Source: a virus (taxonomy: Duplodnaviria; Heunggongvirae; Uroviricota; Caudoviricetes). Taken from it: a DNA stretch of 32,640 bases. The DNA lies in the IMG/VR virus record IMGVR_UViG_2541047942_000003, positions 1 to 32,640 of that record. The stretch is one strand, 5' to 3'. Under the pieces are notes generated by a model. That model did not search any database and was not told where the DNA came from. It worked only from the letters and a program-made list of their open reading frames with translations. This document shows positions 15,320 through 28,751 of this stretch, in pieces; within the stretch, counting starts at the first letter, position 1, and each line of letters starts with the position of its first letter. The position numbers and the translations under genes were made by a program.

Positions 15320-16063
15320 TTAACTGGCTTTCTTTTTCGGGCGTCCACGTTTTGCCGGTGTCACGCTCCGGGTCTTACGCGGGGCGCGGGTGGCCGCTTT
15401 GGGCTGCGGCTCCGGCTTCGGTTTCAGCTCCCGCTCCAGTCGTTCAATCTCTTTTTTGACACCTGCCTGACAGTCGAGCTGTGTCGCACGTTGCAGGTGA
15501 GCCAGCGCACCGGCGGCATCACCACCATCACGCAGAAGCAGACCGGTGATTTTGTGCAGCTTTGCGCGCACTTCATCAGGCATGTCAGCCGTGGCGGTCA
15601 GTTCAAGGGTCTCCGTCAGCAGGCGGGTATCCACAGACTCACCGGCAGCGTGGGCGCGCATGGCCGCGAGCGCCACCTCCTCGGTGAACATGTATGGCGG
15701 GGTGCGGCGGTGTTTACCCGGCATGGTCAGACCGTACTTCAGGGCATAACGGGCAATCTCCAGCGCACCGCCAATATCGCCGGTATCCAGACGCCACAGC
15801 ATGACCGTCATCAGAATGTCATCCTGTGCACCTTTGCCCTGCTCCAGCACGCCGTTCACCCACGGCAACCAGAACGGCAGCAGTTCGCGTTTTTTCGCGG
15901 CCTTCAGCTCTTTTGAATAAATCGCTTTCAGTGTGCGCTGGTCTGCGGCCAGCTTGACCAGCATCTGCTCATAGACAGTTGCATGTCGCAGCGGGGCGGC
16001 TTCCCGCTGCGCGGTCATCGCTGCCGAGACCCGCATCATGTGGCGCTGTGCGGGACTCGTCAT
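15320..16063 (-). CDS. M: Terminase endonuclease (small) subunit gpM
   Basis: 247-aa translation MTSPAQRHMMRVSAAMTAQREAAPL... matches P2 gpM. Confidence 0.9.
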   Translation of the reverse strand: MTSPAQRHMMRVSAAMTAQREAAPLRHATVYEQMLVKLAADQRTLKAIYSKELKAAKKRELLPFWLPWVNGVLEQGKGAQDDILMTVMLWRLDTGDIGGALEIARYALKYGLTMPGKHRRTPPYMFTEEVALAAMRAHAAGESVDTRLLTETLELTATADMPDEVRAKLHKITGLLLRDGGDAAGALAHLQRATQLDCQAGVKKEIERLERELKPKPEPQPKAATRAPRKTRSVTPAKRGRPKKKAS

Positions 16064-16066
16064 CGG

Positions 16067-17140
16067 TTACGCTCCCGGCTCTGCGGTCGCTTTAGCCGGT
16101 GTGGAGAAATCACCGACCTTAATTTTTTCCACCAGACAACCGGCGGCGTAGTCCTCCACCACGTAATCAATGTTCATTGACTCGTAGTTCTCCACGCGAT
16201 CGAGTTTCGGGTTTTCCTCAATCACGCGGCGATGGCTGTCATCCATGTAGTAGATGGACAGGTTTTCCAGCTTCGTGATGAGCATCGCATCAGCCGGGAA
16301 GTACGGGACGCGTACCGCTGGCAGGTTGCCGATGCGTTTCTGGCTGATGATGACGTCAGCGGCCAGCATTTCGCTGTTGTCCTGCTCCTTGTTGACGATG
16401 GGAAAATACTTGTCCGCCAGTAGCTGACGTCCCACAATCACCACAAGGTCAGGGTCTTCCTGATACCACGGCTCAATCAGGTTGTTGGTCGCATCCATCA
16501 CCAGTGCATCAAGGCTGGCATAATCACCGCCCTTACCCACGCGGATGACCTCAGAGGTGGTGTGCCCTTCCTCGTCAGTGACCTTGCTCATCACGCGCGC
16601 CGGAGCTTCATTGCGGTATTTCTGCAGCCAGCCGACCGCCACATCCTGCAGCATCGGGTTACTGCTGCGGTCAGAGGTTTCGGCACGCTTCACGCCGTTA
16701 AAACCGGCCATGATTAAATCAAGGGACTGGCGTTTGATAATGGCGTTACGGACACGGAGCTGGAAATCCTGATAACGCGCCCACAGGTCCAGCGTTTTGT
16801 AGCGGATATAAAAATCGAAGTTAATCTGGTCGCATTCGTACTTGTTTGACGCCAGCTTCGAGAAGTCCTTCGGCTGACGCTCGGTGCCACCGGCGGTGTC
16901 GGTGGTGCTGGCGATGGAGCCGGTGACACCAATACCAATTTTTTCCCCTTTCATTTCGCTGACCGGCACAATGTTGATGCGGGTCAGAAAGTCAGAGGAC
17001 TCCTGCATGGTGTTCATCAGGGTCTGGGTGACCGACGGTTCAACGGTGAATTTTTTCGACACATCACCGGCGTCGATGCCGTTCAATTCGGCAACACGGG
17101 ACAGGTAAGCATTAAATTTAAAGCGGGTTTCCTGGCGCAT
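16067..17140 (-). CDS. N: Major capsid protein gpN
   Basis: 357-aa translation matches P2 gpN. Confidence 0.92.
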   Translation of the reverse strand: MRQETRFKFNAYLSRVAELNGIDAGDVSKKFTVEPSVTQTLMNTMQESSDFLTRINIVPVSEMKGEKIGIGVTGSIASTTDTAGGTERQPKDFSKLASNKYECDQINFDFYIRYKTLDLWARYQDFQLRVRNAIIKRQSLDLIMAGFNGVKRAETSDRSSNPMLQDVAVGWLQKYRNEAPARVMSKVTDEEGHTTSEVIRVGKGGDYASLDALVMDATNNLIEPWYQEDPDLVVIVGRQLLADKYFPIVNKEQDNSEMLAADVIISQKRIGNLPAVRVPYFPADAMLITKLENLSIYYMDDSHRRVIEENPKLDRVENYESMNIDYVVEDYAAGCLVEKIKVGDFSTPAKATAEPGA

Positions 17141-17199
17141 AGTTTTTCCTGAAAATTAAGGGTTAATCGTGAAGGTTTTCCCGGACTGACTGACGCCGG

Positions 17200-18054
17200 T
17201 CAGCAGTTCGTCATCAGGGCGTCACCGCCACCGCCGGTGGCCTTGCTGCGGCGCTGCTGGGTCAGACTTTCGGTGTGGTCGAGGCTGTTTTTCAGGCGGG
17301 TGAATGCCTGGCTGGTTTCATCCGCCCTGTCAGTCACCTCCTGCTTAAGTGCGGAAAAGGCGGTTTCCATCTCAGCGAGGCGCTGCTCAGTGGCGCTCAG
17401 TTTTTCCTGCACATGTTCAGCAACAGCGGTCACCGCTTCATGCACGTCATTCAGACGGGCATCATCGCTGGCCTGTTTGCGGCCAAAAATGGACTTCACC
17501 TTTTCGGTCAGGGCGGTGAACACGGTTTCAGGCAGGTCTTCAAATTCCAGCTCAACGGGCGTTGCCACTGAAATCAGATTTTCAGGGCTTAATTTGAAGC
17601 GGTTCAGGGGATTGTGTTTTGCCGTGCGGCAGAATTCCAGGTATTCCGTGCCAAGGCTTGCCGGGTCATCGGTGACGGCCAGCCCCACCAGATAACATTT
17701 GCCGGTATTGGCAAAGTTCGGCTGAATTTCCATTGAGGTATAGACCTTCTGCGCGGCCTTGTTCATCGCGATAAGGTCATCGGTCGGGGTGATTTTCGCA
17801 AACAGCGCCCATTTGCCTTTCAGCGCCGAATCGTCATCAATCTTTTCAGCCTTCAGTTCGGCCACATCGCCATAACGTTTAAAAATGCCGTCAGGCAGGA
17901 TGCCGCGCAGATGTTCCAGGTTAATGCGGCAACCATAGACTCGCGGGTCAAAGGTTTCGGCCATTTCCTGAATATCCTGCGCACTGATGACACGCCCGTC
18001 ACAGGTGTCACCCTCAACGCCGATACGAAAGAATTTTGAGACTTTTTTTGCCAT
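17200..18054 (-). CDS. O: Capsid scaffolding protein gpO, 284 aa
   Basis: Translation from MAKKVSKFFRIGVEGDTCDGR... matches P2 gpO; start at the ATG at 18052-18054 rather than the track start at 18120. Confidence 0.88.
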   Translation of the reverse strand: MAKKVSKFFRIGVEGDTCDGRVISAQDIQEMAETFDPRVYGCRINLEHLRGILPDGIFKRYGDVAELKAEKIDDDSALKGKWALFAKITPTDDLIAMNKAAQKVYTSMEIQPNFANTGKCYLVGLAVTDDPASLGTEYLEFCRTAKHNPLNRFKLSPENLISVATPVELEFEDLPETVFTALTEKVKSIFGRKQASDDARLNDVHEAVTAVAEHVQEKLSATEQRLAEMETAFSALKQEVTDRADETSQAFTRLKNSLDHTESLTQQRRSKATGGGGDALMTNC

Positions 18055-18227: not shown

Positions 18228-20000
18228 ATGACCATCACCACAGACACCACTCTTTTACACGACCCGCGTCGTCAGGCGGCGCTGCTGTACTGGCAGGGGT
18301 TTTCCGTGCCGCAGATTGCCGCCATGTTGCAGATGAAACGCCCGACGGTGCAGAGCTGGAAACAGCGCGACGGCTGGGACAGCGTTGCCCCCATCAGCCG
18401 TGTCGAAATGAGTCTGGAAGCGCGACTGACCCAGCTCATCATCAAACCGCAGAAAACCGGCGGTGACTTCAAGGAAATTGACCTGCTGGGACGCCAGATT
18501 GAACGACTGGCACGGGTCAACCGCTACAATCAGACCGGCAACGAGGCAGACCTTAATCCGAACATCGCTAACCGCAACAAAGGCGGGCGGCGCAAACCGA
18601 AAAAGAATTTTTTCAGCGACGAGGCTATCGAAAAGCTGGAGCAGATTTTCTTTGAGCAGTCTTTCGACTATCAGTTGCACTGGTATCGCGCCGGGCTTGA
18701 GCACCGCATCCGCGATATCCTGAAATCCCGCCAGATTGGCGCGACGTTTTATTTTTCCCGCGAGGCGCTGCTGCGCGCCCTGAAAACCGGCCATAACCAG
18801 ATTTTTCTGTCGGCCAGTAAAACGCAGGCGTATGTGTTCCGCGAATACATCATCGCCTTTGCCCGGCTGGTTGACGTTGACCTGACCGGTGACCCGATTG
18901 TCCTGGGCAATAACGGCGCAAAACTGATTTTTCTCGGCACCAACTCCAACACCGCACAGAGCCATAACGGCGACCTGTACGTCGACGAGATTTTCTGGAT
19001 CCCGAATTTTCAGGTACTGCGTAAGGTGGCATCAGGTATGGCCTCACAGAGTCACCTGCGCTCGACCTATTTCTCCACCCCGTCCACGCTGGCGCACGAC
19101 GCCTACCCGTTCTGGTCGGGTGAACTGTTCAACCGGGGACGCGCCAGCGCCGCCGAACGCGTGGAAATCGACGTCAGTCATAACGCCCTTGCCGGTGGGC
19201 TTCTCTGTGCGGACGGCCAGTGGCGGCAGATTGTCACCATTGAGGACGCCCTGAAAGGTGGCTGCACGCTGTTCGACATTGAGCAGCTCAAACGCGAAAA
19301 CAGCGCCGACGATTTTAAAAACCTGTTCATGTGTGAATTTGTTGACGACAAGGCGTCGGTGTTCCCGTTCGAGGAGCTGCAACGCTGCATGGTCGACACG
19401 CTGGAAGAATGGGAAGACTATGCGCCGTTTGCCGCGAATCCGTTCGGCTCCCGCCCGGTATGGATTGGTTACGACCCGTCACACCGTGGCGACAGTGCCG
19501 GATGCGTGGTGCTGGCACCGCCGGTGGTGGCCGGTGGCAAATTCAGAATACTTGAGCGTCACCAGTGGAAAGGCATGGACTTTGCCACTCAGGCGGAATC
19601 CATCCGCAAACTCACCGAAAAATACAACGTCGAATACATCGGTATTGATGCCACCGGCCTCGGTGTCGGCGTGTTCCAGCTCGTGCGCTCGTTCTATCCC
19701 GCCGCGCGCGATATCCGCTACACACCGGAAATGAAAACCGCAATGGTGCTCAAGGCAAAAGACGTTATCCGCCGTGGCTGTCTGGAATATGACGTCAGCG
19801 CCACCGACATCACCAGCTCGTTTATGGCTATCCGCAAGACCATGACCAGCAGCGGACGCAGCGCCACCTATGAGGCCAGCCGCAGCGAGGAAGCCAGCCA
19901 CGCCGACCTCGCCTGGGCGACCATGCACGCCCTGTTAAATGAGCCACTCACCGCCGGTATCAGCACCCCGCTGACATCCACCATTCTGGAGTTTTACTGA
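18228..20000 (+). CDS. P: Terminase ATPase (large) subunit gpP, 590 aa
   Basis: Translation from MTITTDTTLLHDPRRQAALLYWQGFSVPQIAAM... matches P2 gpP; start at the ATG at 18228. Confidence 0.9.
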   Translation: MTITTDTTLLHDPRRQAALLYWQGFSVPQIAAMLQMKRPTVQSWKQRDGWDSVAPISRVEMSLEARLTQLIIKPQKTGGDFKEIDLLGRQIERLARVNRYNQTGNEADLNPNIANRNKGGRRKPKKNFFSDEAIEKLEQIFFEQSFDYQLHWYRAGLEHRIRDILKSRQIGATFYFSREALLRALKTGHNQIFLSASKTQAYVFREYIIAFARLVDVDLTGDPIVLGNNGAKLIFLGTNSNTAQSHNGDLYVDEIFWIPNFQVLRKVASGMASQSHLRSTYFSTPSTLAHDAYPFWSGELFNRGRASAAERVEIDVSHNALAGGLLCADGQWRQIVTIEDALKGGCTLFDIEQLKRENSADDFKNLFMCEFVDDKASVFPFEELQRCMVDTLEEWEDYAPFAANPFGSRPVWIGYDPSHRGDSAGCVVLAPPVVAGGKFRILERHQWKGMDFATQAESIRKLTEKYNVEYIGIDATGLGVGVFQLVRSFYPAARDIRYTPEMKTAMVLKAKDVIRRGCLEYDVSATDITSSFMAIRKTMTSSGRSATYEASRSEEASHADLAWATMHALLNEPLTAGISTPLTSTILEFY

Positions 20001-21019
20001 TGAGCAAGAAAAAAGGGAAAACACCGCAACCTGCGGCAAAAAAAATGACCGCCAGCGCCCCGAAAATGGAGGCATTCACCTTTGGTGAGCCGGTGCCGGT
20101 ACTCGACCGCCGTGACATTCTGGATTACGTCGAGTGCATCAGTAACGGCAGATGGTATGAGCCGCCGGTCAGCTTTACCGGTCTGGCGAAAAGCCTGCGT
20201 GCTGCCGTGCATCACAGCTCGCCGATTTACGTCAAACGCAATATTCTGGCCTCGACATTTATCCCGCATCCGTGGCTTTCCCAGCAGGATTTCAGCCGCT
20301 TTGTGCTGGATTTTCTGGTGTTCGGTAATGCGTTTCTGGAAAAGCGTTACAGCACCACCGGTAAGGTCATCAGACTGGAAACCTCACCGGCAAAATATAC
20401 CCGCCGTGGCGTGGAGGAGGATGTTTACTGGTGGGTGCCGTCCTTCAACGAGCCGACAGCCTTCACGCCCGGCTCCGTGTTTCACCTGCTGGAGCCTGAT
20501 ATTAATCAGGAGCTGTACGGCCTGCCGGAATATCTCAGCGCCCTTAACTCTGCATGGCTGAATGAGTCGGCCACGCTGTTCCGCCGCAAGTATTACGAAA
20601 ACGGCGCACATGCCGGATACATCATGTACGTCACCGATGCCGTGCAGGATCGCAACGATATCGAAATGCTTCGCGAAAACATGGTGAAGTCGAAAGGCCG
20701 CAACAACTTTAAAAATCTATTTCTCTATGCCCCACAGGGGAAAGCCGACGGCATTAAAATTATCCCGCTCAGTGAAGTGGCAACGAAGGACGATTTTTTT
20801 AATATCAAAAAAGTCAGCGCCGCAGATCTGCTGGACGCACACCGCATCCCCTTTCAGTTGATGGGCGGCAAGCCGGAGAACGTCGGGTCACTGGGGGATA
20901 TTGAGAAAGTGGCAAAAGTATTTGTCCGTAATGAACTCATTCCATTACAGGAGAGAATAAAGTCAATAAATGAATGGTTAGATATGGAAGTCATAAAATT
21001 CCATGATTATAACTTATAA
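20000..21019 (+). CDS. Q: Portal protein gpQ; the last 25 or so codons are encoded by AT-rich DNA
   Basis: 339-aa translation matches P2 gpQ; DNA composition changes sharply near 20940. Confidence 0.9.
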   Translation: MSKKKGKTPQPAAKKMTASAPKMEAFTFGEPVPVLDRRDILDYVECISNGRWYEPPVSFTGLAKSLRAAVHHSSPIYVKRNILASTFIPHPWLSQQDFSRFVLDFLVFGNAFLEKRYSTTGKVIRLETSPAKYTRRGVEEDVYWWVPSFNEPTAFTPGSVFHLLEPDINQELYGLPEYLSALNSAWLNESATLFRRKYYENGAHAGYIMYVTDAVQDRNDIEMLRENMVKSKGRNNFKNLFLYAPQGKADGIKIIPLSEVATKDDFFNIKKVSAADLLDAHRIPFQLMGGKPENVGSLGDIEKVAKVFVRNELIPLQERIKSINEWLDMEVIKFHDYNL

Positions 21020-21031
21020 GTAAATATATAA

Positions 21032-21057
21032 AGTGGGCGGAATGCAATCCCGCCTAC
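21032..21057. terminator. Stem-loop between the convergent Q and two-TM genes (putative bidirectional terminator)
   Basis: AGTGGGCGG ... CCGCCTACT, a roughly 9-bp stem with one G-U pair and a loop containing AATGCAA. Confidence 0.4.
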
Positions 21058-21061
21058 TTAA

Positions 21062-21769
21062 CTATATATACTTCCTTTTTATTCTACTTAATTCTATCAC
21101 CGATGAGGAATGACAAAATGACAAATTAATAGTATCGATATAATCCAAAATTTGACTCTCAACCTCGATAAAAATATTCTTGGGTCCATTACTAATCGAT
21201 ATACCGATTTCATCCAAAACAGCCATCATTTTTCTCTGATGAGTTTTATATTTATAGTCTTTATTTTCCTCTGTAATATGTGCATTAGCTTCCTCAATAA
21301 CACATTTGATTCTAGATATTATTTCTAGATAATCTCTCGAAACAGATATATCACCGCCCTGTGCTTCAGGAAACATAACCCTATACCATCTAAAAAAATT
21401 AACTTTCTCTGGATAGATGCTACTTCTTTTAGTTAACTCAGCACTTGCAAATTCTCTAAACATCGTCAGATGACTAGTATAATTACTATTGTTATTATTT
21501 TTAACTCCAGCGTTATATGTCATCAAAGCAATCATAACACCAAAAACGGTAACAAAAGTTGTTATAAGCCATCCAAATGCCTGAAAATACATCACTATAC
21601 CAGATGTTTTTTCCGCAAAAAATTTCAAGCACTGGCTATCAAAGCATATATCTCGTTCATATAGCCTTTCATTCTGAATAGTTTCCAAAAGAGAAATTAG
21701 CGAAAAAATCAAAAAAAGAACTGACGACACACCGACAATACATTTAAGAAGTCTAATATTTGCATTCAT
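21062..21769 (-). CDS. Two-TM membrane protein, 235 aa; candidate effector of the reverse transcriptase module
   Basis: Two predicted N-terminal hydrophobic helices (LLKCIVGVSSVLFLIFSLISLL and IVMYFQAFGWLITTFVTVFGVMIALM) and a soluble C-terminal domain; the start ATG overlaps the RT stop (ATGA); AT-rich. Confidence 0.6.
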   Translation of the reverse strand: MNANIRLLKCIVGVSSVLFLIFSLISLLETIQNERLYERDICFDSQCLKFFAEKTSGIVMYFQAFGWLITTFVTVFGVMIALMTYNAGVKNNNNSNYTSHLTMFREFASAELTKRSSIYPEKVNFFRWYRVMFPEAQGGDISVSRDYLEIISRIKCVIEEANAHITEENKDYKYKTHQRKMMAVLDEIGISISNGPKNIFIEVESQILDYIDTINLSFCHSSSVIELSRIKRKYI

Positions 21770-22956
21770 AATGGTTTTAAAGATGCCAATCTAGATTTAA
21801 AACACTCCAGTTTTTCTTTAAATGATTCAGATCGAGTAAGGATAATCATCTTATATCTCGTCAAATCATACTTTCTTTTATACCAATGTTTATTTTGATT
21901 ACCTTTCGAATACGACAACTCTAAACTTTTTATAGCTGCATCAATCACAGCAACATCTCTTTTAGATGGCATCGGTTTTATTGCCTGTAACTGTTTCTTG
22001 AATGATTCATATTTTTCATGCCCAACACGACCAAGCTTATTAACTCTCCCCATACATCTATTGAATTCTTTTCTGTATGCAACACTTGTTTTTGTATTAT
22101 TTTTTGCCGCCAGCAATTTCAAATTATGTATAGATGCCCTGATTCTTTTGACTTCATCAGATGGTAGTCGAGGTGAGTCATAGTCAACTCTTAAACCATG
22201 TACTTTTATAGGTTCAGATGAACAGTGAAATATTTTAGTTTTGTGCTTATTTATCGGCAAGTCATGCTCAGAAAGCATCCTCTCTATATGGCTTTGCATT
22301 TGAGAAAAATCATAATTACTTATTTTAGATGACACAGTAATATCATCTACCAAACGCGTATAAATAAGTCCTTTTCTCTGCGCACGCCTTACCACATCCC
22401 CTTCAACAGCGAATAAACACAAAGTTGCTATATAGCTTGATGTTAAGGCCCCCTGTACGACAAAATCATTCTTAGTACATATATCCACCAAGTATTCAAG
22501 AGCCTCATCCTTAATATGCAATATATCCTCAAACACGCTCCTAACCAGATCTCTATGAATATTATCGAAAAAATTACTTATATCCACCTTGAGAACTGTT
22601 TTTGCTCCACAATGAGCCTTTGCGCATGAAACATAGTCACGTTTGACGTTAGAATTTAAAACATCATTTTTACTAGGGACTGAACCAAACAAAAATGAAG
22701 GAAAAACCACCAATTCCTTAAAGATACGTTTATTAATTCTACTCTGTAATAATCTCATTTTAGGATGCAGGGAGTAGACAATCCGTTTGCTTCCGTCAAT
22801 TTTGGGAATTTCTTTTAGAGTATATTTCTCATCTAATGGTAGTTCTGCAATAGCTTTAAGCTCTTCAACAGAAATCGATAAAGCCTTTGACAGCTTTTCA
22901 AGTGTTGTGATAGGAGCATTGGATTTGCTGTATGGTTTAAATTTATCCATAAACAT
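21766..22956 (-). CDS. Retron-type reverse transcriptase, about 396 aa
   Basis: Motif order typical of retron RTs: LSKALSISVEEL, VLKVDISNFFDNI, QGALTSSYIATL, GLIYTRLVDDITVS (YADD position reads LVDD), KTKIF...VHG. The track start at 23040 is a TTG and is probably false; I place the start at the ATG ending at 22956 (MFMDKF), which is uncertain by a few tens of nt. Confidence 0.75.
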   Translation of the reverse strand: MFMDKFKPYSKSNAPITTLEKLSKALSISVEELKAIAELPLDEKYTLKEIPKIDGSKRIVYSLHPKMRLLQSRINKRIFKELVVFPSFLFGSVPSKNDVLNSNVKRDYVSCAKAHCGAKTVLKVDISNFFDNIHRDLVRSVFEDILHIKDEALEYLVDICTKNDFVVQGALTSSYIATLCLFAVEGDVVRRAQRKGLIYTRLVDDITVSSKISNYDFSQMQSHIERMLSEHDLPINKHKTKIFHCSSEPIKVHGLRVDYDSPRLPSDEVKRIRASIHNLKLLAAKNNTKTSVAYRKEFNRCMGRVNKLGRVGHEKYESFKKQLQAIKPMPSKRDVAVIDAAIKSLELSYSKGNQNKHWYKRKYDLTRYKMIILTRSESFKEKLECFKSRLASLKPL

Positions 22957-22973
22957 ACCATTCAAATTCAAAG

Positions 22974-23280
22974 TTACGTACGGTCTTCCCATACTCAAGG
23001 GTGGAACAGCAGAGATGCTTACATCAACAATTGTCAGCAACAGCCTCTGCTATCTTTCGACCGTACGTAATGTCGTCGGCTACAGCACCATCGTAGTTGA
23101 CGACGGTGGGGCCTCGCTGATAGGTCCATAGTGGACGCTTTTTTGTAAAAGCAAAAACTGACAATTTAGTATTGTTGACTGCCGCATACCAAGCGAATCG
23201 CTGGTGCGCTAAGAATAATGCAACAAAAAAATAAGAATTTCAATCGAGTAACTGCAAGCCAGCGACATCGTTTGGCGCGC
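22974..23280 (-). ncRNA. Structured noncoding region between cos and the RT start; candidate retron msr-msd or other RT-associated ncRNA; boundaries unresolved
   Basis: Perfect 12-bp inverted repeat TTACGTACGGTC / GACCGTACGTAA (23059-23070 and 22974-22985) enclosing a nested AGCAGAG / CTCTGCT repeat; a further hairpin at 23072-23104 and a palindrome GCTTTTTTGTAAAAGC at 23137-23152. Confidence 0.3.
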
Positions 23281-23281
23281 A

Positions 23282-23300
23282 GTGCTTTCCCCGCCTCGCC
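23282..23300 (-). other. cos: P2-type cos (19-nt cohesive-end sequence GGCGAGGCGGGGAAAGCAC on the minus strand)
   Basis: Reverse complement of 23282-23300 reads GGCGAGGCGGGGAAAGCAC followed by TGCGCGC, matching my recollection of the left end of the P2 genome. Confidence 0.65.
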
Positions 23301-23395
23301 CGCCCGCTTCATGGGGCGGTTTTGATGCAACCTCGTATTAAAGGGGACACCATAGCCCATCAAACCTCAGACTTCGCCCCTAGCTAACGTTTATG

Positions 23396-23422
23396 AATGC
23401 AATGTAATGCAACTTAATGCAA
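23396..23422 (+). promoter_or_regulatory. Three AATGCAA heptamers spaced exactly 10 bp apart, upstream of the helicase-nuclease gene; putative protein-binding sites
   Basis: AATGCAA at 23396, 23406 and 23416; followed by an AT-rich -10-like GATAAT (23434-23439) and an AAGAGG ribosome-binding site 7 nt before the ATG at 23484. Confidence 0.4.
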
Positions 23423-23483
23423 GTTATGGTAATGATAATTCTGCGTTAACAATTAAACTAATGTACCTGTAAGAGGATAAAAA

Positions 23484-25967
23484 ATGTCTGGTTTTTTCCT
23501 TGATTTAACCAAGCTTTCGCCCAGTGTAAATAGCGACACAGCGATTCCACCGCGAGATATATTTACAGCTCTACCGAGCAAAGACACCAAATTTCAATAC
23601 CCTCGAGATGTGCAATCAGAGGTCTGGGAAAAATGGTATGAAGCAAGGAGAAGCCCAACCAATGTAATAAAAATGAATACCGGAAGCGGTAAAACTTCAG
23701 TTGGGTTAATCATTCTTAAAAGCTGTATAAATGAAGGAGAAGGTCCCGCTGTATATGTTGTTCCTGACAACTATCTAGTTGAGCAAGTGGTTTTGGAGGC
23801 TAATCAACTTGGTATACCTGTAACTCAAGATGAGAGGTCCCCCAAATTTATTGCAGGTAAAGAAATTTTAGTTACAAATATATTCAAAGTGGTTAATGGA
23901 CGTTCTGCATTTGGCGTTGGAGATGATGGACAAAAAATACCAATAGGTTCTATAATAATTGACGATGCTCACGCTTGCCTTTCTTCAATTGAAGAACAAT
24001 TCTCCATTAGCATTCAAAAAAATAACCCTGCCTATGATAAATTATTCAGAATTTTTGAAAATTCACTAATGACACAAGCTGGTGCAAAAACACTAGAGAT
24101 AAAATCCGGCGATAGAAATGCTTATGTGAGAGTTCCATTTTGGAAATGGCAAGAAAGCATAAATGATATAATGACAATCTTGTTAGAAAATAAAGACCAT
24201 GATGACTTGAGTTTCAAATGGCCATTAATAAAAGACAATCTAATATTATCGAAATGCGTTGTAAGTGCTTCCAAAATAGAGATATCACCTCATTGCATAC
24301 CAATCCAAATGATCCCAAGCCTATCAAACGCAAGAAGAAAAATATTCATGACAGCTACTCTTGTCGATGAATCCATTCTAGCGAGCCACTTCGGAATAAC
24401 GGATGAATCACTCTCTAATCCGATAACACCAAAAACAATTGGTGATATTGGTGATAGAATGATACTAATGCCTCAGGTTATAAACCCTAGTCTTTCTGAT
24501 GTAGATATCAAAGCTATGTGCAAGGAGATATCCTCCAAACATAATGTTGTTGTAATTGTACCATCCGATTACAGAACTAGATTTTGGCAAGATGTTGCAG
24601 ACAGAATATTAGATAAAAATACAATTTATCAAGGTGTACAAGAATTAAGGACACAACATGTTGGCTTAGTAGTCCTAGTTAATAGATATGATGGTATTGA
24701 TTTACCAAATACCGCATGTCGTCTATTAGTAATAGATGGACTTCCTGACGTTCGTAGACTAATAGATAAAGTCTCACAAAGCTTATTGCTTGGAAGCGAA
24801 AAAACCAAAGATGAAATTATCCAGAAAATTGAACAAGGAATGGGGCGAGGAGTGAGATCAAGCGACGACTTCTGCGGAGTGATCTTACTTGGCAAAGCAT
24901 TAAATGGCGCTGTTTTCCTTGGCTCCTCCTTAGAAAGGTTTTCTCCAGCAACGAAAGCACAAATTCAACTTTCACAGCAATTGGTATCGATACTGCCGGA
25001 TACAACTATTGATTCAATCAAAGGTGCTCTTGATTATTGTCTGTTACGCAATTCTGACTGGGTCTCAAAAAGCAAAGGTATATTGACTGGCTTAACATTG
25101 GAAAATAAGCAGATTGACCAGCATACTATAAACAAAAGATTGGCATATGACTTAGCATCACGAAATATGTTTCAACAAGCCGCTTTAACTCTAAAAAATG
25201 ATAGTAGTACAGCTGACAAAGTTTATAAGGGTTATCTAAAAGAACATGCTGCGGAATATGTAAACTTATATGACAAATCTGAAGCTCAGATATTGCTTCA
25301 GTCTGCATCAAACGATAACTATCGGGTATTAAAACCACTAATCGGCGTAACATATAATAGACTTAATGGTGCGGCACTTGAACAGGCCAGGGAATGTAGC
25401 TCCTATCTCAGAAGTAATTTTGAATCGGCGAATCAAGTCGTTGTGCATACTAATTCAATAATAGAAAACCTTATTTTCTCCGAGGGCACATCGAATCCCT
25501 TCGAAGATGCTATCGAAAAAGTTGCATATTTGGTCGGTTTTCGTAGCCAACGGCCAGAAAATGATACAGGTAAAGGACCTGACAATTTATGGGCAATGGG
25601 AGAAAACAATTATCTAGTAATTGAATGCAAAAATGGAGCAACCGCAGAAAGAATAAGTAAGCATGACTGCAATCAGTTAAATGGGTCGGGTGCATGGTTC
25701 AGAAACATGTATGATCAAACTGCTACCGCCACACCTATAATGATACATCACTCTAACATGCCTGAATATGCCGCAACACTAAACGAAGGGTCTCGAATAA
25801 TGACCATAAATGATCTTGAACGTTTTAAAGCATCTATCCTCAGTTTTATCACGGCCATTTGTACAAGTGATAAACGACACGATGAGATATTTATAAGAGA
25901 ACAATTGATCACATGTAAATTACGTGCATCAGACATAGTTGAGACCTATACGCGAAACCCTCGTTAA
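23484..25967 (+). CDS. Helicase-nuclease fusion, 827 aa: Rad3/DinG-like SF2 helicase with a C-terminal PD-(D/E)xK-like motif; candidate single-gene defence protein
   Basis: Walker A NTGSGKT (aa 65-71), motif II IIIDDAHA (aa 157-164), motif III FMTATL, motif VI QGMGRGVRSSDDFCGVILLG, and C-terminal E...GPD(aa 700)...VIECK(aa 714-716); strong RBS; AT-rich; occupies the P2 old/tin position. Confidence 0.7.
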   Translation: MSGFFLDLTKLSPSVNSDTAIPPRDIFTALPSKDTKFQYPRDVQSEVWEKWYEARRSPTNVIKMNTGSGKTSVGLIILKSCINEGEGPAVYVVPDNYLVEQVVLEANQLGIPVTQDERSPKFIAGKEILVTNIFKVVNGRSAFGVGDDGQKIPIGSIIIDDAHACLSSIEEQFSISIQKNNPAYDKLFRIFENSLMTQAGAKTLEIKSGDRNAYVRVPFWKWQESINDIMTILLENKDHDDLSFKWPLIKDNLILSKCVVSASKIEISPHCIPIQMIPSLSNARRKIFMTATLVDESILASHFGITDESLSNPITPKTIGDIGDRMILMPQVINPSLSDVDIKAMCKEISSKHNVVVIVPSDYRTRFWQDVADRILDKNTIYQGVQELRTQHVGLVVLVNRYDGIDLPNTACRLLVIDGLPDVRRLIDKVSQSLLLGSEKTKDEIIQKIEQGMGRGVRSSDDFCGVILLGKALNGAVFLGSSLERFSPATKAQIQLSQQLVSILPDTTIDSIKGALDYCLLRNSDWVSKSKGILTGLTLENKQIDQHTINKRLAYDLASRNMFQQAALTLKNDSSTADKVYKGYLKEHAAEYVNLYDKSEAQILLQSASNDNYRVLKPLIGVTYNRLNGAALEQARECSSYLRSNFESANQVVVHTNSIIENLIFSEGTSNPFEDAIEKVAYLVGFRSQRPENDTGKGPDNLWAMGENNYLVIECKNGATAERISKHDCNQLNGSGAWFRNMYDQTATATPIMIHHSNMPEYAATLNEGSRIMTINDLERFKASILSFITAICTSDKRHDEIFIREQLITCKLRASDIVETYTRNPR

Positions 25968-25976
25968 ACAGTAAAA

Positions 25977-25999
25977 GACCACCTCCTAAGGAGGTGGTC
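25977..25999. terminator. Perfect 10-bp stem-loop GACCACCTCC-TAA-GGAGGTGGTC, 10 nt after the helicase stop codon
   Basis: Read directly from the DNA; flanked by AAAA upstream and a T-rich stretch downstream, so it could terminate either convergent transcript. Confidence 0.5.
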
Positions 26000-26206
26000 C
26001 TTGTATAATAAAAAGAACCAGTTTTTATTGTTAATAATACAATTCTCGAATTTCAACATAGACTTATTGTACCACCAGTAAAATCATCAATATTAATATA
26101 TAGAAAAAAAGAAATGTCGATTATTTGTACGTAGCGTAATCATATTAACATATACAGATAAACAGCAACCTTACCATTATGCAACCAATCTAAAACATTA
26201 TGTTTA

Positions 26207-28486
26207 TTACTCTGAATAACCAGAAAACCCACTCCACTCATCTACACTAGGATATGAAAATTGCTTTTCATTGTAATTGACGATCGCACCGCGTACTAAC
26301 GCCTCAAGCTCCCATCGCTGCGGCCTGATACCGTTTTGAGCAAGGTCAACGCGGATACGGGTGATTTGCATTCGTTCCGACCTGGTCAGTCTGGCCGATG
26401 GTGCAATTTCATGTGGTTTTAACGGGCTTCCGTTTCTTTGCTGACGACTTGGCGTTCTCCGACCGTGTTTTAATGCACCCCTGAGCGCCCTCACGACCTC
26501 CGGGTCATTCCATTCGATAACACCGTCATCAACCAGATTTAGCACTGCTGCGGCGTGCTCAGAAGGTGTGGGAGCCGGTAACGAAGTATCACCACCGGTG
26601 AGCTTTCCACAGTTATTGACAGGACTCCGAGGCGCGGCGATGCCGCTTTTTAAAGTCAAAGGCTCAAAGACCGGCACTTTCGGAACAATGCGCCAGTCCG
26701 TCGTTCTGGTGATATGAATATGACGCGCGCCGAGATGCGGCGCGTAAATGCCGACCACTCTCTCGACTTCTTCCTCATACTCGTTAACGTCATCCGACGG
26801 GCTACGGGCGACCCTGACAGTCTGACAATCGCGCGGGACATTTGCCCCACCCTGCGCGCTGATATACAACGCAAAATCACCACTGTCTGCGGCGGCGCGT
26901 GCAGCCTCGACGCGCTCGTCAAACTCATCAGCAATGCTGACGCCGCGAGGCAATTTGCGTAGTTCACGGTAAGCCCCCATTGTCGGCAGACCAACCGTTT
27001 TAAATTGCGGGATGCGCCACGTTGACGCCCATGCGGTAACAGCCGCGGCAGTGTCTTTCAGCGGTCTGCCGGTATCATTATCGAGCTGACCATCCAGTGC
27101 ATATCCGTCGATATTTTTTGAGATGTATTTCGCGATATACCCCGCAGCACCGCCCCGGTTAAGGTGTTTCGCCTGAAAACGGTTTCGCGCGGCTCCTCTT
27201 TCGTCGCCATCCTCTTTGAGCGCGTAGCGACGCATGATTTCAATAATCTGGTTACGCTGGCGTGGATTACAAAAAAGCATCATATGCCAGTGCGGCGTTC
27301 CGTCGTGGTGTGGCTCGACGACTCGCAAACCGTAGGCCTGTAAATCATTATCCTTGAATGCCGTGCGCATCAGGCTCCAGATGCGGCAGAGATAACGCTG
27401 AGCATCCTTTGGATTAAATGCCTCATCATTCCAGCCGTGATTTAGCTGGACGGTTTTACTTTCGCCTTTTCCGACCTGACGTGTCGGGTGATACTTTGAC
27501 GGCGCGGTCAGCGTGATAAACATCCCCACATCACCCTCTGCGGCGGCGTAACGCTCAATACCGGCAATGGTGTTCATCAGCTCCATCCGGCGAATTTCAG
27601 GATTAGAAATACTGCCCATCACCTTACTGATAAGGTCGATGCGTTCGCCGGTTTCCCTGTTTTCAAGGTCACACGATTTAAGAAATTCCAGATTTGCCTG
27701 GCGGCGCGCACGCACATCACGAATGGCATGTTTACTGGCATAAGGAGAACGGTCTTTATTGACCTCCCCGACAGCAATCAGTAACGCCTCATGCCAGCGC
27801 ATACGCTGGCCTTTAAGCTGATGAGTCCACCACTCATCGTTAAACAGGCGGGCAATAGCAGAATATGCCTGCCTCGTGGTCATCTGTCCTTTACGGTATT
27901 TTTTCCAGTAGAGAGGGGAAATATTGAAAGCACGTGCAGCGCCAGCAACATGACCATAGAGGTGAGCCTGCGCCTCATCCGTAAACAGCGATTCTTTCTC
28001 GCCATGCGCATCCACCCAGGCATCGCAGAGTTCCTCATACATCATGAAAAGCTGTGATGAGATACGGGCGGCAAACTTTTTCAGCTCCTTGTCATTCATT
28101 CCCGGCAGGCGCGCATAGTGGTCACGCTCTGCCAGAAACAGCAACGACGCGTCGGTGTTCATTTCATGGCGCTGATTCACACGCTCAATGCGCGGCCATA
28201 AACGACGCTGAAAAGTGGATGTGAGGAAATAAAACCCGTGCACCGGGCTTTTATTGCGCCGGATGTAGTCATAGCGTGAAGTAAACAGCGAGCGCAAAAA
28301 GTAAGGCAGGCGGTTAATCGTGGATAAAACACCTTGCACCTGACGCATCTCGTCACGTGTAAGGGGTCTTTCGCGCCCGACAGCCTCGCGTGGCGCGTTC
28401 CATGCATAAGCACCGGTAAACGCCTTACCGGTGCCTGCAGCAAATGCTGACGGAGGGACAAAACGCCCGGAGGCTTTAACGGCCAT
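26207..28486 (-). CDS. A: Replication initiation protein gpA (rolling-circle nickase), 759 aa
   Basis: Translation from MAVKASGRFVPPSAFAAGTGKAF... matches P2 gpA; start placed at the ATG ending at 28486 rather than the track start at 28528. Confidence 0.9.
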   Translation of the reverse strand: MAVKASGRFVPPSAFAAGTGKAFTGAYAWNAPREAVGRERPLTRDEMRQVQGVLSTINRLPYFLRSLFTSRYDYIRRNKSPVHGFYFLTSTFQRRLWPRIERVNQRHEMNTDASLLFLAERDHYARLPGMNDKELKKFAARISSQLFMMYEELCDAWVDAHGEKESLFTDEAQAHLYGHVAGAARAFNISPLYWKKYRKGQMTTRQAYSAIARLFNDEWWTHQLKGQRMRWHEALLIAVGEVNKDRSPYASKHAIRDVRARRQANLEFLKSCDLENRETGERIDLISKVMGSISNPEIRRMELMNTIAGIERYAAAEGDVGMFITLTAPSKYHPTRQVGKGESKTVQLNHGWNDEAFNPKDAQRYLCRIWSLMRTAFKDNDLQAYGLRVVEPHHDGTPHWHMMLFCNPRQRNQIIEIMRRYALKEDGDERGAARNRFQAKHLNRGGAAGYIAKYISKNIDGYALDGQLDNDTGRPLKDTAAAVTAWASTWRIPQFKTVGLPTMGAYRELRKLPRGVSIADEFDERVEAARAAADSGDFALYISAQGGANVPRDCQTVRVARSPSDDVNEYEEEVERVVGIYAPHLGARHIHITRTTDWRIVPKVPVFEPLTLKSGIAAPRSPVNNCGKLTGGDTSLPAPTPSEHAAAVLNLVDDGVIEWNDPEVVRALRGALKHGRRTPSRQQRNGSPLKPHEIAPSARLTRSERMQITRIRVDLAQNGIRPQRWELEALVRGAIVNYNEKQFSYPSVDEWSGFSGYSE

Positions 28487-28751
28487 ATGAGCCAAAAGCC
28501 TCTGAACAACGCTTGCTGAGTTGCTCAACCTGCGCGTTTAAATCAGCAAAAGACTTTGCGCTTCCGGTCAGAATATCGTGATGCATCAGGCCGGAAACGA
28601 GCTGGCTTAATTTCGGGTAATAACCAACCACCGCCAGCCATTCCTGACCGGCGTTTTTACCGCTTTCCGCTCTCTTTTTCTCGTGGAGAATAAACTGGAA
28701 GCTGTCACTGGTAACGACATAACGTTCGCCAATTTCAATACGAATACTCAT
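28476..28751 (-). CDS. Small early-operon protein, 91 aa, at the P2 orf83 position
   Basis: Lies upstream of A in the cox-B-A operon; assigned by synteny only. Confidence 0.6.
   Translation of the reverse strand: MSIRIEIGERYVVTSDSFQFILHEKKRAESGKNAGQEWLAVVGYYPKLSQLVSGLMHHDILTGSAKSFADLNAQVEQLSKRCSEAFGSYGR

Follow-up and report, generated by a model that had tools for sequence, protein, structure and literature searches.

The locus raises the question of what a single long gene between the cohesive-end site and the replication gene of a P2-like prophage encodes, and whether its product serves defence. The window, that is, the whole stretch of DNA analysed, comprises 32,640 nucleotides (positions 1 to 32,640 of IMG/VR virus record IMGVR_UViG_2541047942_000003). 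The gene, here named hna, and its immediate signals are as follows.

23484..25967, + strand: hna, 827-aa Hna-family helicase-nuclease CDS including the stop codon (ORF, PADLOC, PDB, Foldseek, RefSeq)
23471..23477, + strand: Shine-Dalgarno-like AAGAGGA, 6 nt upstream of the hna ATG (read from the sequence)
25974..26002, no strand assigned: 13-bp G+C-rich hairpin between the convergent genes hna and A, directly past the hna stop (sequence)

The 827-codon open reading frame begins with ATG and ends with TAA, and a frame of such length in 37% GC DNA cannot be of chance origin. Its product is the same protein as RefSeq WP_021570163. The G+C content of hna is 0.375, compared with 0.537 in the remaining prophage. 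The initial annotation had described one AT-rich 827-aa frame with a ribosome binding site of its own, and the intact frame, its composition and AAGAGGA confirm this description. No sigma-70-like promoter stood out upstream of hna; the number of sites in the scan did not exceed that in shuffled sequence, and for this reason no hna promoter is claimed. The hairpin is terminator-like, yet has a weak T tail on either strand. A search of Rfam over positions 20500-26500, with E values up to 0.1, returned no matches.

By sequence comparison, the 827-aa protein is a full-length homologue of Hna, a family already described. Hna of Sinorhizobium meliloti (PDB 10UJ/9YKJ/9YHN) was matched by phmmer at E 5.8e-121, with residues 60-792 aligned collinearly against 62-806, and by BLASTP with 32% identity (E 7e-131). 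The alignment with proteins of the S. meliloti clade is collinear, N terminus included; the N terminus of that clade was read from close relatives, the best of which, from Paraburkholderia, is 68% identical, and a genome-contig scan with a fragment of S. meliloti Hna, reconstructed from the alignment, did not have S. meliloti itself among its results. All functionally tested residues of S. meliloti Hna are invariant across both clades except the dimer-loop positions.

A structure search of a predicted model and a PADLOC check had been proposed in the initial annotation, and both lead to Hna. The AF2 model of the hna product has a pLDDT of 82, and its first Foldseek matches are Hna monomer and dimer entries (E 7e-61 for 9YHN, then 2.7e-44 and 2.6e-28), with XPD, DinG and CasDinG ranking behind them at E of about 1e-11. 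PADLOC assigned the full length of the protein to the candidate system PDC-S28 (PDLC04986) at 1055 bits. The same model scores 1022-1083 bits on S. meliloti-clade proteins, so that PDC-S28 takes in the clade of S. meliloti Hna as well and corresponds to the Hna family. The best non-Hna PADLOC match is typeIV_DinG, at 44 bits, and phrog_16128 was matched at 1979 bits over 827/827 positions. Where the protein had earlier been called either Hna-like or a member of an uncharacterised family, the first option stands, in the form of a full-length homologue, and the second does not. Membership in Hachiman, Shango, Pbe or Cas3 was rejected, as only weak PADLOC matches in the N lobe were obtained for them.

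From the N to the C terminus, sequence and model predict a flexible conserved loop, a Q-motif (R41, Q44), RecA-like lobes, a helical region, a linker and a nuclease. The corresponding features are listed below.

23538..23615, + strand: N-terminal loop and Q-motif, residues 19-44 (conservation, pLDDT)
23682..23696, + strand: Walker A / motif I GSGKT, residues 67-71, the lysine being K70 (G67, G69, K70 and T71 invariant)
23961..23972, + strand: motif II DDAH, residues 160-163, a DEAH-box variant (D160, D161, A162 and H163 invariant)
24351..24362, + strand: motif III TATL, residues 290-293 (sequence, alignment)
24834..24857, + strand: motif VI QGMGRGVR, residues 451-458 (Q451, G452, G454, R455 and R458 invariant)
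25371..25964, + strand: C-terminal segment of hna
25575..25583, + strand: G698-P699-D700, nuclease metal-binding PD motif, corresponding to P712/D713 in S. meliloti Hna (alignment)
25620..25631, + strand: I713-E714-C715-K716, nuclease ExK motif, corresponding to E727/K729 in S. meliloti Hna (alignment)

Sequence and predicted structure give an SF2 core of XPD/DinG type that has two RecA-like lobes, carries a small Arch-like insert and lacks an Fe-S domain. Pfam ResIII matches residues 40-168, and motif VI falls within the Pfam Helicase_C_2 match, with SSDDFCGVILLG at residues 459-470 immediately after QGMGRGVR. The 13 cysteines are scattered; C165 lies directly past DDAH, and C81 is the only one between Walker A and motif II, a segment of about 90 residues that has no inserted domain in the AlphaFold model. 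The linker (approximately residues 612-629) is of low confidence in the model. It is followed by the C-terminal PD-(D/E)xK nuclease domain (E674, P699-D700, E714-x-K716), in which the catalytic PD...ExK is present. In S. meliloti Hna, cleavage is reduced in P712A/D713A/E727A, and exonuclease activity is abolished by K729A (Hooper et al. 2026, PMC13381803).

The architecture first read from the letters, an SF2 ATPase of XPD/DinG type that lacks an Fe-S cysteine cluster and is fused to a C-terminal PD-(D/E)xK core, is thus upheld by the Pfam and fold matches. Each helicase motif, from GSGKT through DDAH and TATL to QGMGRGVR with the adjoining SSDDFCGVILLG, was found at the residue given for it, as were GPD (698-700) and IECK (713-716). 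The residues picked for mutagenesis were well placed, K70 being the Walker A lysine and D700, E714 and K716 the equivalents of D713, E727 and K729.

The N-terminal region combines a shared and a clade-specific part. R41 and Q44, invariant in both clades, are the counterparts of R36/Q39, which coordinate ATP in S. meliloti Hna. Within its own clade, P23, R24, F27, L30, P31, K33, Y39, P40, R41, D42 and Q44 are invariant. The position of the loop in residues 19-44 matches that of the Hna dimerisation loop, and residues 35-38 are probably unstructured, because their pLDDT is below 50. [quoted passage not shown] 2026, PMC13381803). The loop reads DTKFQYPRDVQ here versus DKGPL---RPAQ in the S. meliloti clade and also differs in length; as its sequence differs between the clades, T30/D31/P34 have no clear one-to-one counterparts. 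Judged from these sequences, the ATP-driven dimerisation and SSB competition of S. meliloti Hna may be altered on transfer to the E. coli clade.

The surroundings of hna are defined by three features.

20000-21019: portal gene Q
23282..23300, - strand: cohesive-end sequence cos of P2, read as GGCGAGGCGGGGAAAGCAC on the - strand, bounding the hna cassette on the left (exact 19-nt match)
26207..28528, - strand: gene A of P2, encoding the replication endonuclease and bordering the hotspot on the right (ORF and RefSeq arrangement)

P4 has the same 19-nt sequence in its own cos region, and the annotated cosR of P2 lies at the end of that phage. P2-like phages share a conserved block of 55 bp (23275-23329), and hna-carrying genomes match the window from 23275 on. 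The start of hna lies 184 bp from cos, and its transcription is convergent with that of gene A. In P2 (NC_001895), old and tin are transcribed towards A from a point about 150 bp inside cosR, which agrees with the position and orientation initially ascribed to hna. No further ORF of at least 50 aa was found between hna and A. In E. coli AH01 and WP2-W18-CRE-03, no gene other than hna lies between A and portal gene Q, and the view of a single-gene cassette holds in these two genomes.

Rousset et al. (2022) defined a P2 hotspot bounded by portal gene Q and replication gene A. Its system #28, "ResIII/DEAD", which occurs 130 times and is annotated as "Type III REase" (Rousset et al. 2022, Table S5B), is a one-protein system outside the set that was cloned and tested. 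Over the approximately 400 residues printed in Table S5B, its sequence is identical to that of the hna product. The gene hna is cargo of this cos-proximal defence hotspot, a variable cassette in a P2-like prophage. An Ec48-type retron lies across cos from hna in the same prophage.

Among 5426 complete E. coli genomes, hna is present in 70 (1.3%), in all cases on the chromosome and at least 99% identical; a second Hna type was not found in these genomes by blastn with a Serratia gene of the S. meliloti clade. Members of its own clade (Enterobacterales, Pseudomonas, cyanobacteria) are about 52-56% identical, and identity to the S. meliloti clade is 28-32%. The Pseudomonas and Pectobacterium relatives lie within integrase-bounded islands and have differing neighbours, the Pectobacterium gene being located 5.6 kb from a gene with an LmuB_C domain. 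At the DNA level, a phage collection yielded no match to hna, its matches being confined to the cos block and to the side of the retron, and tblastn gave one match, 30% identical, on a Salmonella contig. A search of the literature that combined Hna and P2-like gave no result.

Hna, including an E. coli Hna, was reportedly described by Sather et al. 2023. Anti-phage activity has been demonstrated for the family, and the abortive infection of S. meliloti Hna is triggered by phage SSB. According to a paper citing Sather 2023, both S. meliloti Hna and an E. coli Hna are activated by phage SSB. The preferred reading, with a probability of about 0.8, is that hna encodes a member of the Hna family, a single-polypeptide abortive-infection defence, carried here as cargo of a P2-like prophage hotspot. 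By analogy with the 32%-identical S. meliloti Hna, the protein in an uninfected cell would be an ATP-bound homodimer linked by the N-terminal loop of HEL1, with the nuclease domain disengaged and inactive. On infection, the phage SSB would compete at the dimer interface and break the dimer. The released enzyme would leave its ATPase-dominant state and become an active, Mg2+-dependent 3'-5' exonuclease on DNA whose 3' ends are single-stranded, and unregulated DNA degradation would stop the infected cell from making phage. The ATPase core would probably act as an ATP- and ssDNA-sensing switch, not as an unwinding motor. In vitro, S. meliloti Hna did not unwind duplexes (Hooper et al. 2026, PMC13381803), and "helicase" therefore names the fold and not a shown activity.

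A variant of this reading, considered unlikely, keeps the protein in Hna and has its clade regulated or triggered unlike S. meliloti Hna: another phage protein or a DNA structure could be the trigger, another interface could provide autoinhibition, or replication intermediates could be degraded directly. Such a divergence would fit the identity of just 28-32% to the S. meliloti clade and a loop of different length whose sequence is the clade's own and invariant at the site of the dimer/SSB interface; moreover, diversity in trigger recognition among Hna orthologues is expected (Hooper et al. 2026, PMC13381803). The conservation of catalytic and ATP-binding residues, domain order and fold argues the other way, as do the conserved unstructured loop at the equivalent place and the SSB response reported for an E. 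coli Hna in the citing paper mentioned above. That the clade, with its invariant loop P23-R24..F27..L30-P31.K33.....Y39-P40-R41-D42.Q44, forms a functionally distinct Hna subtype is a tentative and rather doubtful suggestion from the alignment; as the loop at the dimer/SSB-interface site is its own, the clade could sense another phage factor or use another geometry of autoinhibition.

Abortive infection by Hna was also weighed against two roles outside this family. An orphan type III Res subunit would cleave DNA that lacks modification once ATP-dependent communication along it has taken place, and the ResIII match at residues 40-168, the similar architecture with a PD-(D/E)xK nuclease C-terminal to an SF2 ATPase and the "Type III REase" note of Rousset et al. 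(Table S5B) all recall such an enzyme. It is nevertheless extremely improbable: the C-terminal helicase lobe matches Helicase_C_2, which is of DinG/XPD type, and the top 50 Foldseek matches contain no type III Res, Hna being followed by XPD/DinG instead. NCBIfam gave sub-threshold matches only (dnd restriction with 23 bits, the cut-off being 600; Cas3g). A Mod methyltransferase is absent both from the cos-to-A interval and from the single-gene hotspots of the two E. coli genomes, so that the earlier argument against type III restriction from the lack of a methyltransferase nearby is sustained, and the fold search contradicts Res as well. A role outside defence, as a helicase-exonuclease of DinG/XPD type that would serve the DNA metabolism of prophage or host in repair or replication, is very improbable, too. 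XPD and DinG are indeed the nearest solved folds after Hna, and weak PADLOC and PHROG helicase matches exist; however, the Fe-S domain of XPD/DinG is missing, and the gene is patchily present (1.3% of complete E. coli genomes), low in GC relative to the prophage and located in a hotspot that is variable and non-essential and is occupied by old/tin in P2. The position of relatives within integrase islands and the demonstrated anti-phage activity of the family also speak against a repair role.

As a member of the Hna family, hna is not new: the family has been named and tested in vivo, its structures have been solved, and the protein has been catalogued as P2 hotspot cargo. It currently carries the labels "DEAD/DEAH box helicase family protein" in RefSeq, "unknown function" in PHROGs, "candidate" in PADLOC and "Type III REase" in the hotspot catalogue, all four of which should become Hna. 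The prophage is a further case of a P2-like element arming its host with systems for abortive infection, Hna and an Ec48-type retron flanking cos. The gain for biology is small, the point of some interest being a possible effect of the divergent N-terminal loop on the trigger.

Compared with known systems, Hna shares with Hachiman HamAB, Nhi, HmaA, DdmD and type III/ISP restriction the combination of an ATPase/helicase sensor and a PD-(D/E)xK effector, but these have other helicase subfamilies and domain orders and no significant sequence match; several of these helicase-plus-nuclease defences respond to phage SSB. P2 Old/Tin resemble hna in the cos-proximal slot and the direction of transcription; all are exclusion genes carried by prophages, and Old, too, is an ATPase-nuclease. 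They have no homology to hna, Old being an ABC-ATPase/Toprim protein (OLD-family) and Tin unrelated, so that position alone is held in common. XPD, DinG and CasDinG (Csf4) share the two RecA lobes, the Arch-like insert and the Helicase_C_2 match, whereas identity is 10-17% and Hna adds the C-terminal PD-(D/E)xK nuclease; XPD and E. coli DinG carry an Fe-S domain, which Hna lacks. PDC-S28 and phrog_16128 match over the full length, but are labelled "candidate" and "unknown function", and system #28 of Rousset et al., from the same gpA-gpQ locus, is labelled "Type III REase" there and Hna here. The closest known system is S. meliloti Hna, likewise a single gene (845 aa, versus 827 aa here) with the domain order HEL1, HEL2, helical region, linker and NUC, an XPD/DinG-like core without Fe-S, and conserved Q-motif R/Q, Walker A, DDAH, motif VI and PD...ExK. 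It differs in belonging to a separate clade at 32% identity and in the sequence of the dimerisation loop, and it is encoded on the pSymA megaplasmid, whereas the hna described here resides in a P2-like prophage at the cos hotspot.

The ORF map shows the window to be essentially a single P2-like prophage. The gene under study, hna, and its neighbors are arranged as follows (window positions; motifs by residue of the hna product).

20000..21019: portal gene, separated from cos by the second (retron) cassette
21062-23040, minus strand: retron cassette, type IV (Ec48-type), with reverse transcriptase (RT) and 2TM effector, between cos and the portal gene
23070-23268, minus strand: putative retron msr-msd non-coding RNA, between the RT start and cos
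23282-23300: P2 cohesive-end sequence, 19 nt, exact match
6 nt 5' of the hna ATG, plus strand: AAGAGGA, read from the sequence
23484..25967, plus strand: hna ORF, ATG start, 827 codons
residues 67-71: GSGKT
residues 160-163: DDAH
residues 290-293: TATL
residues 451-458: QGMGRGVR, with SSDDFCGVILLG immediately after
residues 698-700: GPD
residues 713-716: IECK
26207..28528, minus strand: replication gene A, convergent with hna

All motifs quoted for this ORF in the initial annotation were found at the residues assigned to them. The Fe-S cluster is missing, as had been noted: the 13 cysteines are dispersed, and lobe 1 has no cluster of four. The gene also has a Shine-Dalgarno-like sequence of its own (AAGAGGA) and the AT-richness ascribed to it (37.5% G+C versus 53.7% in the remainder of the prophage). 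The hotspot is AT-rich throughout 21000-26200 (0.33-0.37 GC versus 0.54 in the prophage backbone), which fits horizontally acquired cargo. Three exact copies of AATGCAA with 10-bp spacing (23396-23422) are located 62-88 bp 5' of the hna start codon, within the upstream region specific to the hna cassette, and could be an operator or promoter element. Between the convergent hna and A, 7 nt 3' of the hna stop, a perfect 13-bp G+C-rich hairpin (25974-26002) looks like a terminator, though neither strand has a good T tract.

The 19-nt cohesive-end sequence is annotated as cosR in P2 and is also present in P4 cos regions. From cos it is 184 bp to the start of hna, which reads toward A. In P2, old and tin are transcribed toward A from about 150 bp inside cosR, so hna occupies the same slot in the same orientation, as first proposed. 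The A-cos-Q interval was defined as a defence hotspot by Rousset et al. 2022.

Pfam assigned only generic helicase domains to the product (ResIII/DEAD, 40-172; Helicase_C_2, 400-471) and had no match in the C-terminal third. Full-length matches were obtained with the PADLOC candidate single-gene system PDC-S28 (1055 bits) and with phrog_16128 of PHROGs, labelled "unknown function". Decisive for identity was the search of solved structures, in which residues 60-792 matched the 845-residue chain of 10UJ, 9YKJ and 9YHN (E 5.8e-121), which are the cryo-EM structures of Sinorhizobium meliloti Hna according to their data-availability statement. BLASTP against this protein gave 32% identity (E 7e-131), and the last 200 residues alone retrieved the Hna nuclease domain (E 4.7e-17). 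Foldseek comparison of an AlphaFold2 model (30 homologues, pLDDT 82) with the PDB placed the three Hna entries on top (E 7e-61, 2.7e-44 and 2.6e-28), followed by XPD, DinG and CasDinG at about 1e-11. The early suggestion of an Hna-like protein is thereby upheld, and membership of the Hna family is assigned a probability of about 97%. Proteins of the S. meliloti clade score 1022-1083 bits on the PADLOC profile PDLC04986, much as the window protein does (1055 bits), so PDC-S28 and Hna are one family. It comprises more than 3,900 clusters at E 1e-5 or better, from Proteobacteria and cyanobacteria, with a near-constant length of 827-838 aa.

The gene was found in 70 of 5426 complete E. coli genomes, always chromosomal and at least 99% identical, and is annotated there as "DEAD/DEAH box helicase family protein". 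Strains AH01 and WP2-W18-CRE-03 have no other gene between Q and A. Only the window allele occurs in the complete E. coli genomes, and blastn retrieved no S. meliloti-clade hna gene from them. An E. coli Hna was reportedly tested by Sather et al.; since the complete genomes carry this allele only, it was probably the same one. The protein, WP_021570163, is listed in Table S5A of Rousset et al. 2022. Table S5B of that study contains system #28 "ResIII/DEAD" (P2 hotspot, 130 occurrences, note "Type III REase"), whose printed sequence of about 400 residues is identical to the window translation; the system was outside the set cloned. In Pectobacterium, an 80%-identical Hna (15675-17953 of locus L085, from CP051652.1) lies in an integrase-bounded island, with MC3-domain and LmuB_C-domain (Lamassu-like) genes about 5.2-7.5 kb 3' of it. 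Genes from an integrative element (integrase, AAA_25 and RepC) precede the Pseudomonas aeruginosa homologue.

The reading as an orphan type III Res subunit is rejected, because a Mod gene is absent from the cos-to-A interval and from the single-gene hotspots of other genomes, the protein has a DinG-type C-lobe, and the top 50 Foldseek matches include no Res structure. The reading as a housekeeping DinG-like helicase is at odds with how patchily the gene is distributed, with its place in a hotspot and its foreign base composition, with the integrase islands around its relatives and with the lack of an Fe-S domain. The only serious alternative lies within the Hna family, namely a trigger or regulation other than that of S. 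meliloti Hna.

The retron cassette across cos shares 97.5% identity with Escherichia phage pro147, in which the effector carries the name "retron Ec48 family effector membrane protein". PADLOC matched the RT to RT_IV (E 8e-177) and the effector to 2TM_IV (E 9e-85). The mechanical RT ORF (424 aa) has a TTG start at 23040; the RT_IV match begins only at residue 36, so translation probably begins at an internal methionine, M29 or M31 ("MFMDKF..."), which would leave roughly the first 28-30 codons (22936-23040 region) non-coding. The segment 23070-23268 is the probable msr-msd RNA: inverted repeats at 23070-23081 and 23257-23268 form a long-range closing stem, and the fold has -74 kcal/mol (z = -2.8 versus shuffles). 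Rfam gave no match to it. None of the complete E. coli genomes in RefSeq combines retron and hna as the window does; in genomes with hna, the match to the window is confined to 23275 (cos) and rightward, and on the retron side the matches are to other prophages. The two cos flanks appear to swap cargo independently.

The domain anatomy, the conservation of ATP-binding and nuclease active-site residues and the stand-alone mobile context were established in this analysis. By analogy with S. meliloti Hna, ATP binding would keep the protein as a homodimer via an N-terminal loop, and in this state the nuclease domain would be flexible and inactive. Phage SSB would compete for the loop interface, dissolving the dimer and relieving ATP inhibition; the freed Hna would degrade DNA with single-stranded 3' ends, 3'-5', by its PD-(D/E)xK site, and the infected cell would die or stall without phage release. 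As S. meliloti Hna unwound no duplex in vitro (Hooper et al. 2026, PMC13381803), the "helicase" core is best seen as a switch depending on ATP and ssDNA.

In S. meliloti Hna, K729A abolished the exonuclease, P712A/D713A/E727A weakened it, R36A/Q39A left the ATPase dead and the nuclease hyperactive, and T30A/D31A/P34A broke the ATP-stabilised dimer (Hooper et al. 2026, PMC13381803). Counted through the pairwise alignment, P712, D713, E727 and K729 correspond to P699, D700, E714 and K716 here; alignment with five S. meliloti-clade proteins (52-68% identical to S. meliloti Hna) equates R36/Q39 with R41/Q44. All six are invariant in both clades, as are K70, T71, D160-D161-A162-H163, Q451, G452, G454, R455, R458 and E674; the mutants initially suggested (K70, D700, E714, K716) are sound choices. 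The pre-Q-motif loop is the sole region without carry-over, DKGPL---RPAQ in the S. meliloti clade versus DTKFQYPRDVQ here. It is almost invariant inside the clade of the window protein (Enterobacterales, Pseudomonas and cyanobacteria), and residues 35-38 are predicted to be disordered (pLDDT <50). The mechanism outline quite likely holds for the E. coli protein, doubt arising chiefly from this divergent loop. Both the defence gene and the hotspot that carries it were known before, and the practical gain is a corrected annotation: Hna is the identity of PDC-S28, of phrog_16128 and of the "Type III REase" listed by Rousset et al. as system #28.
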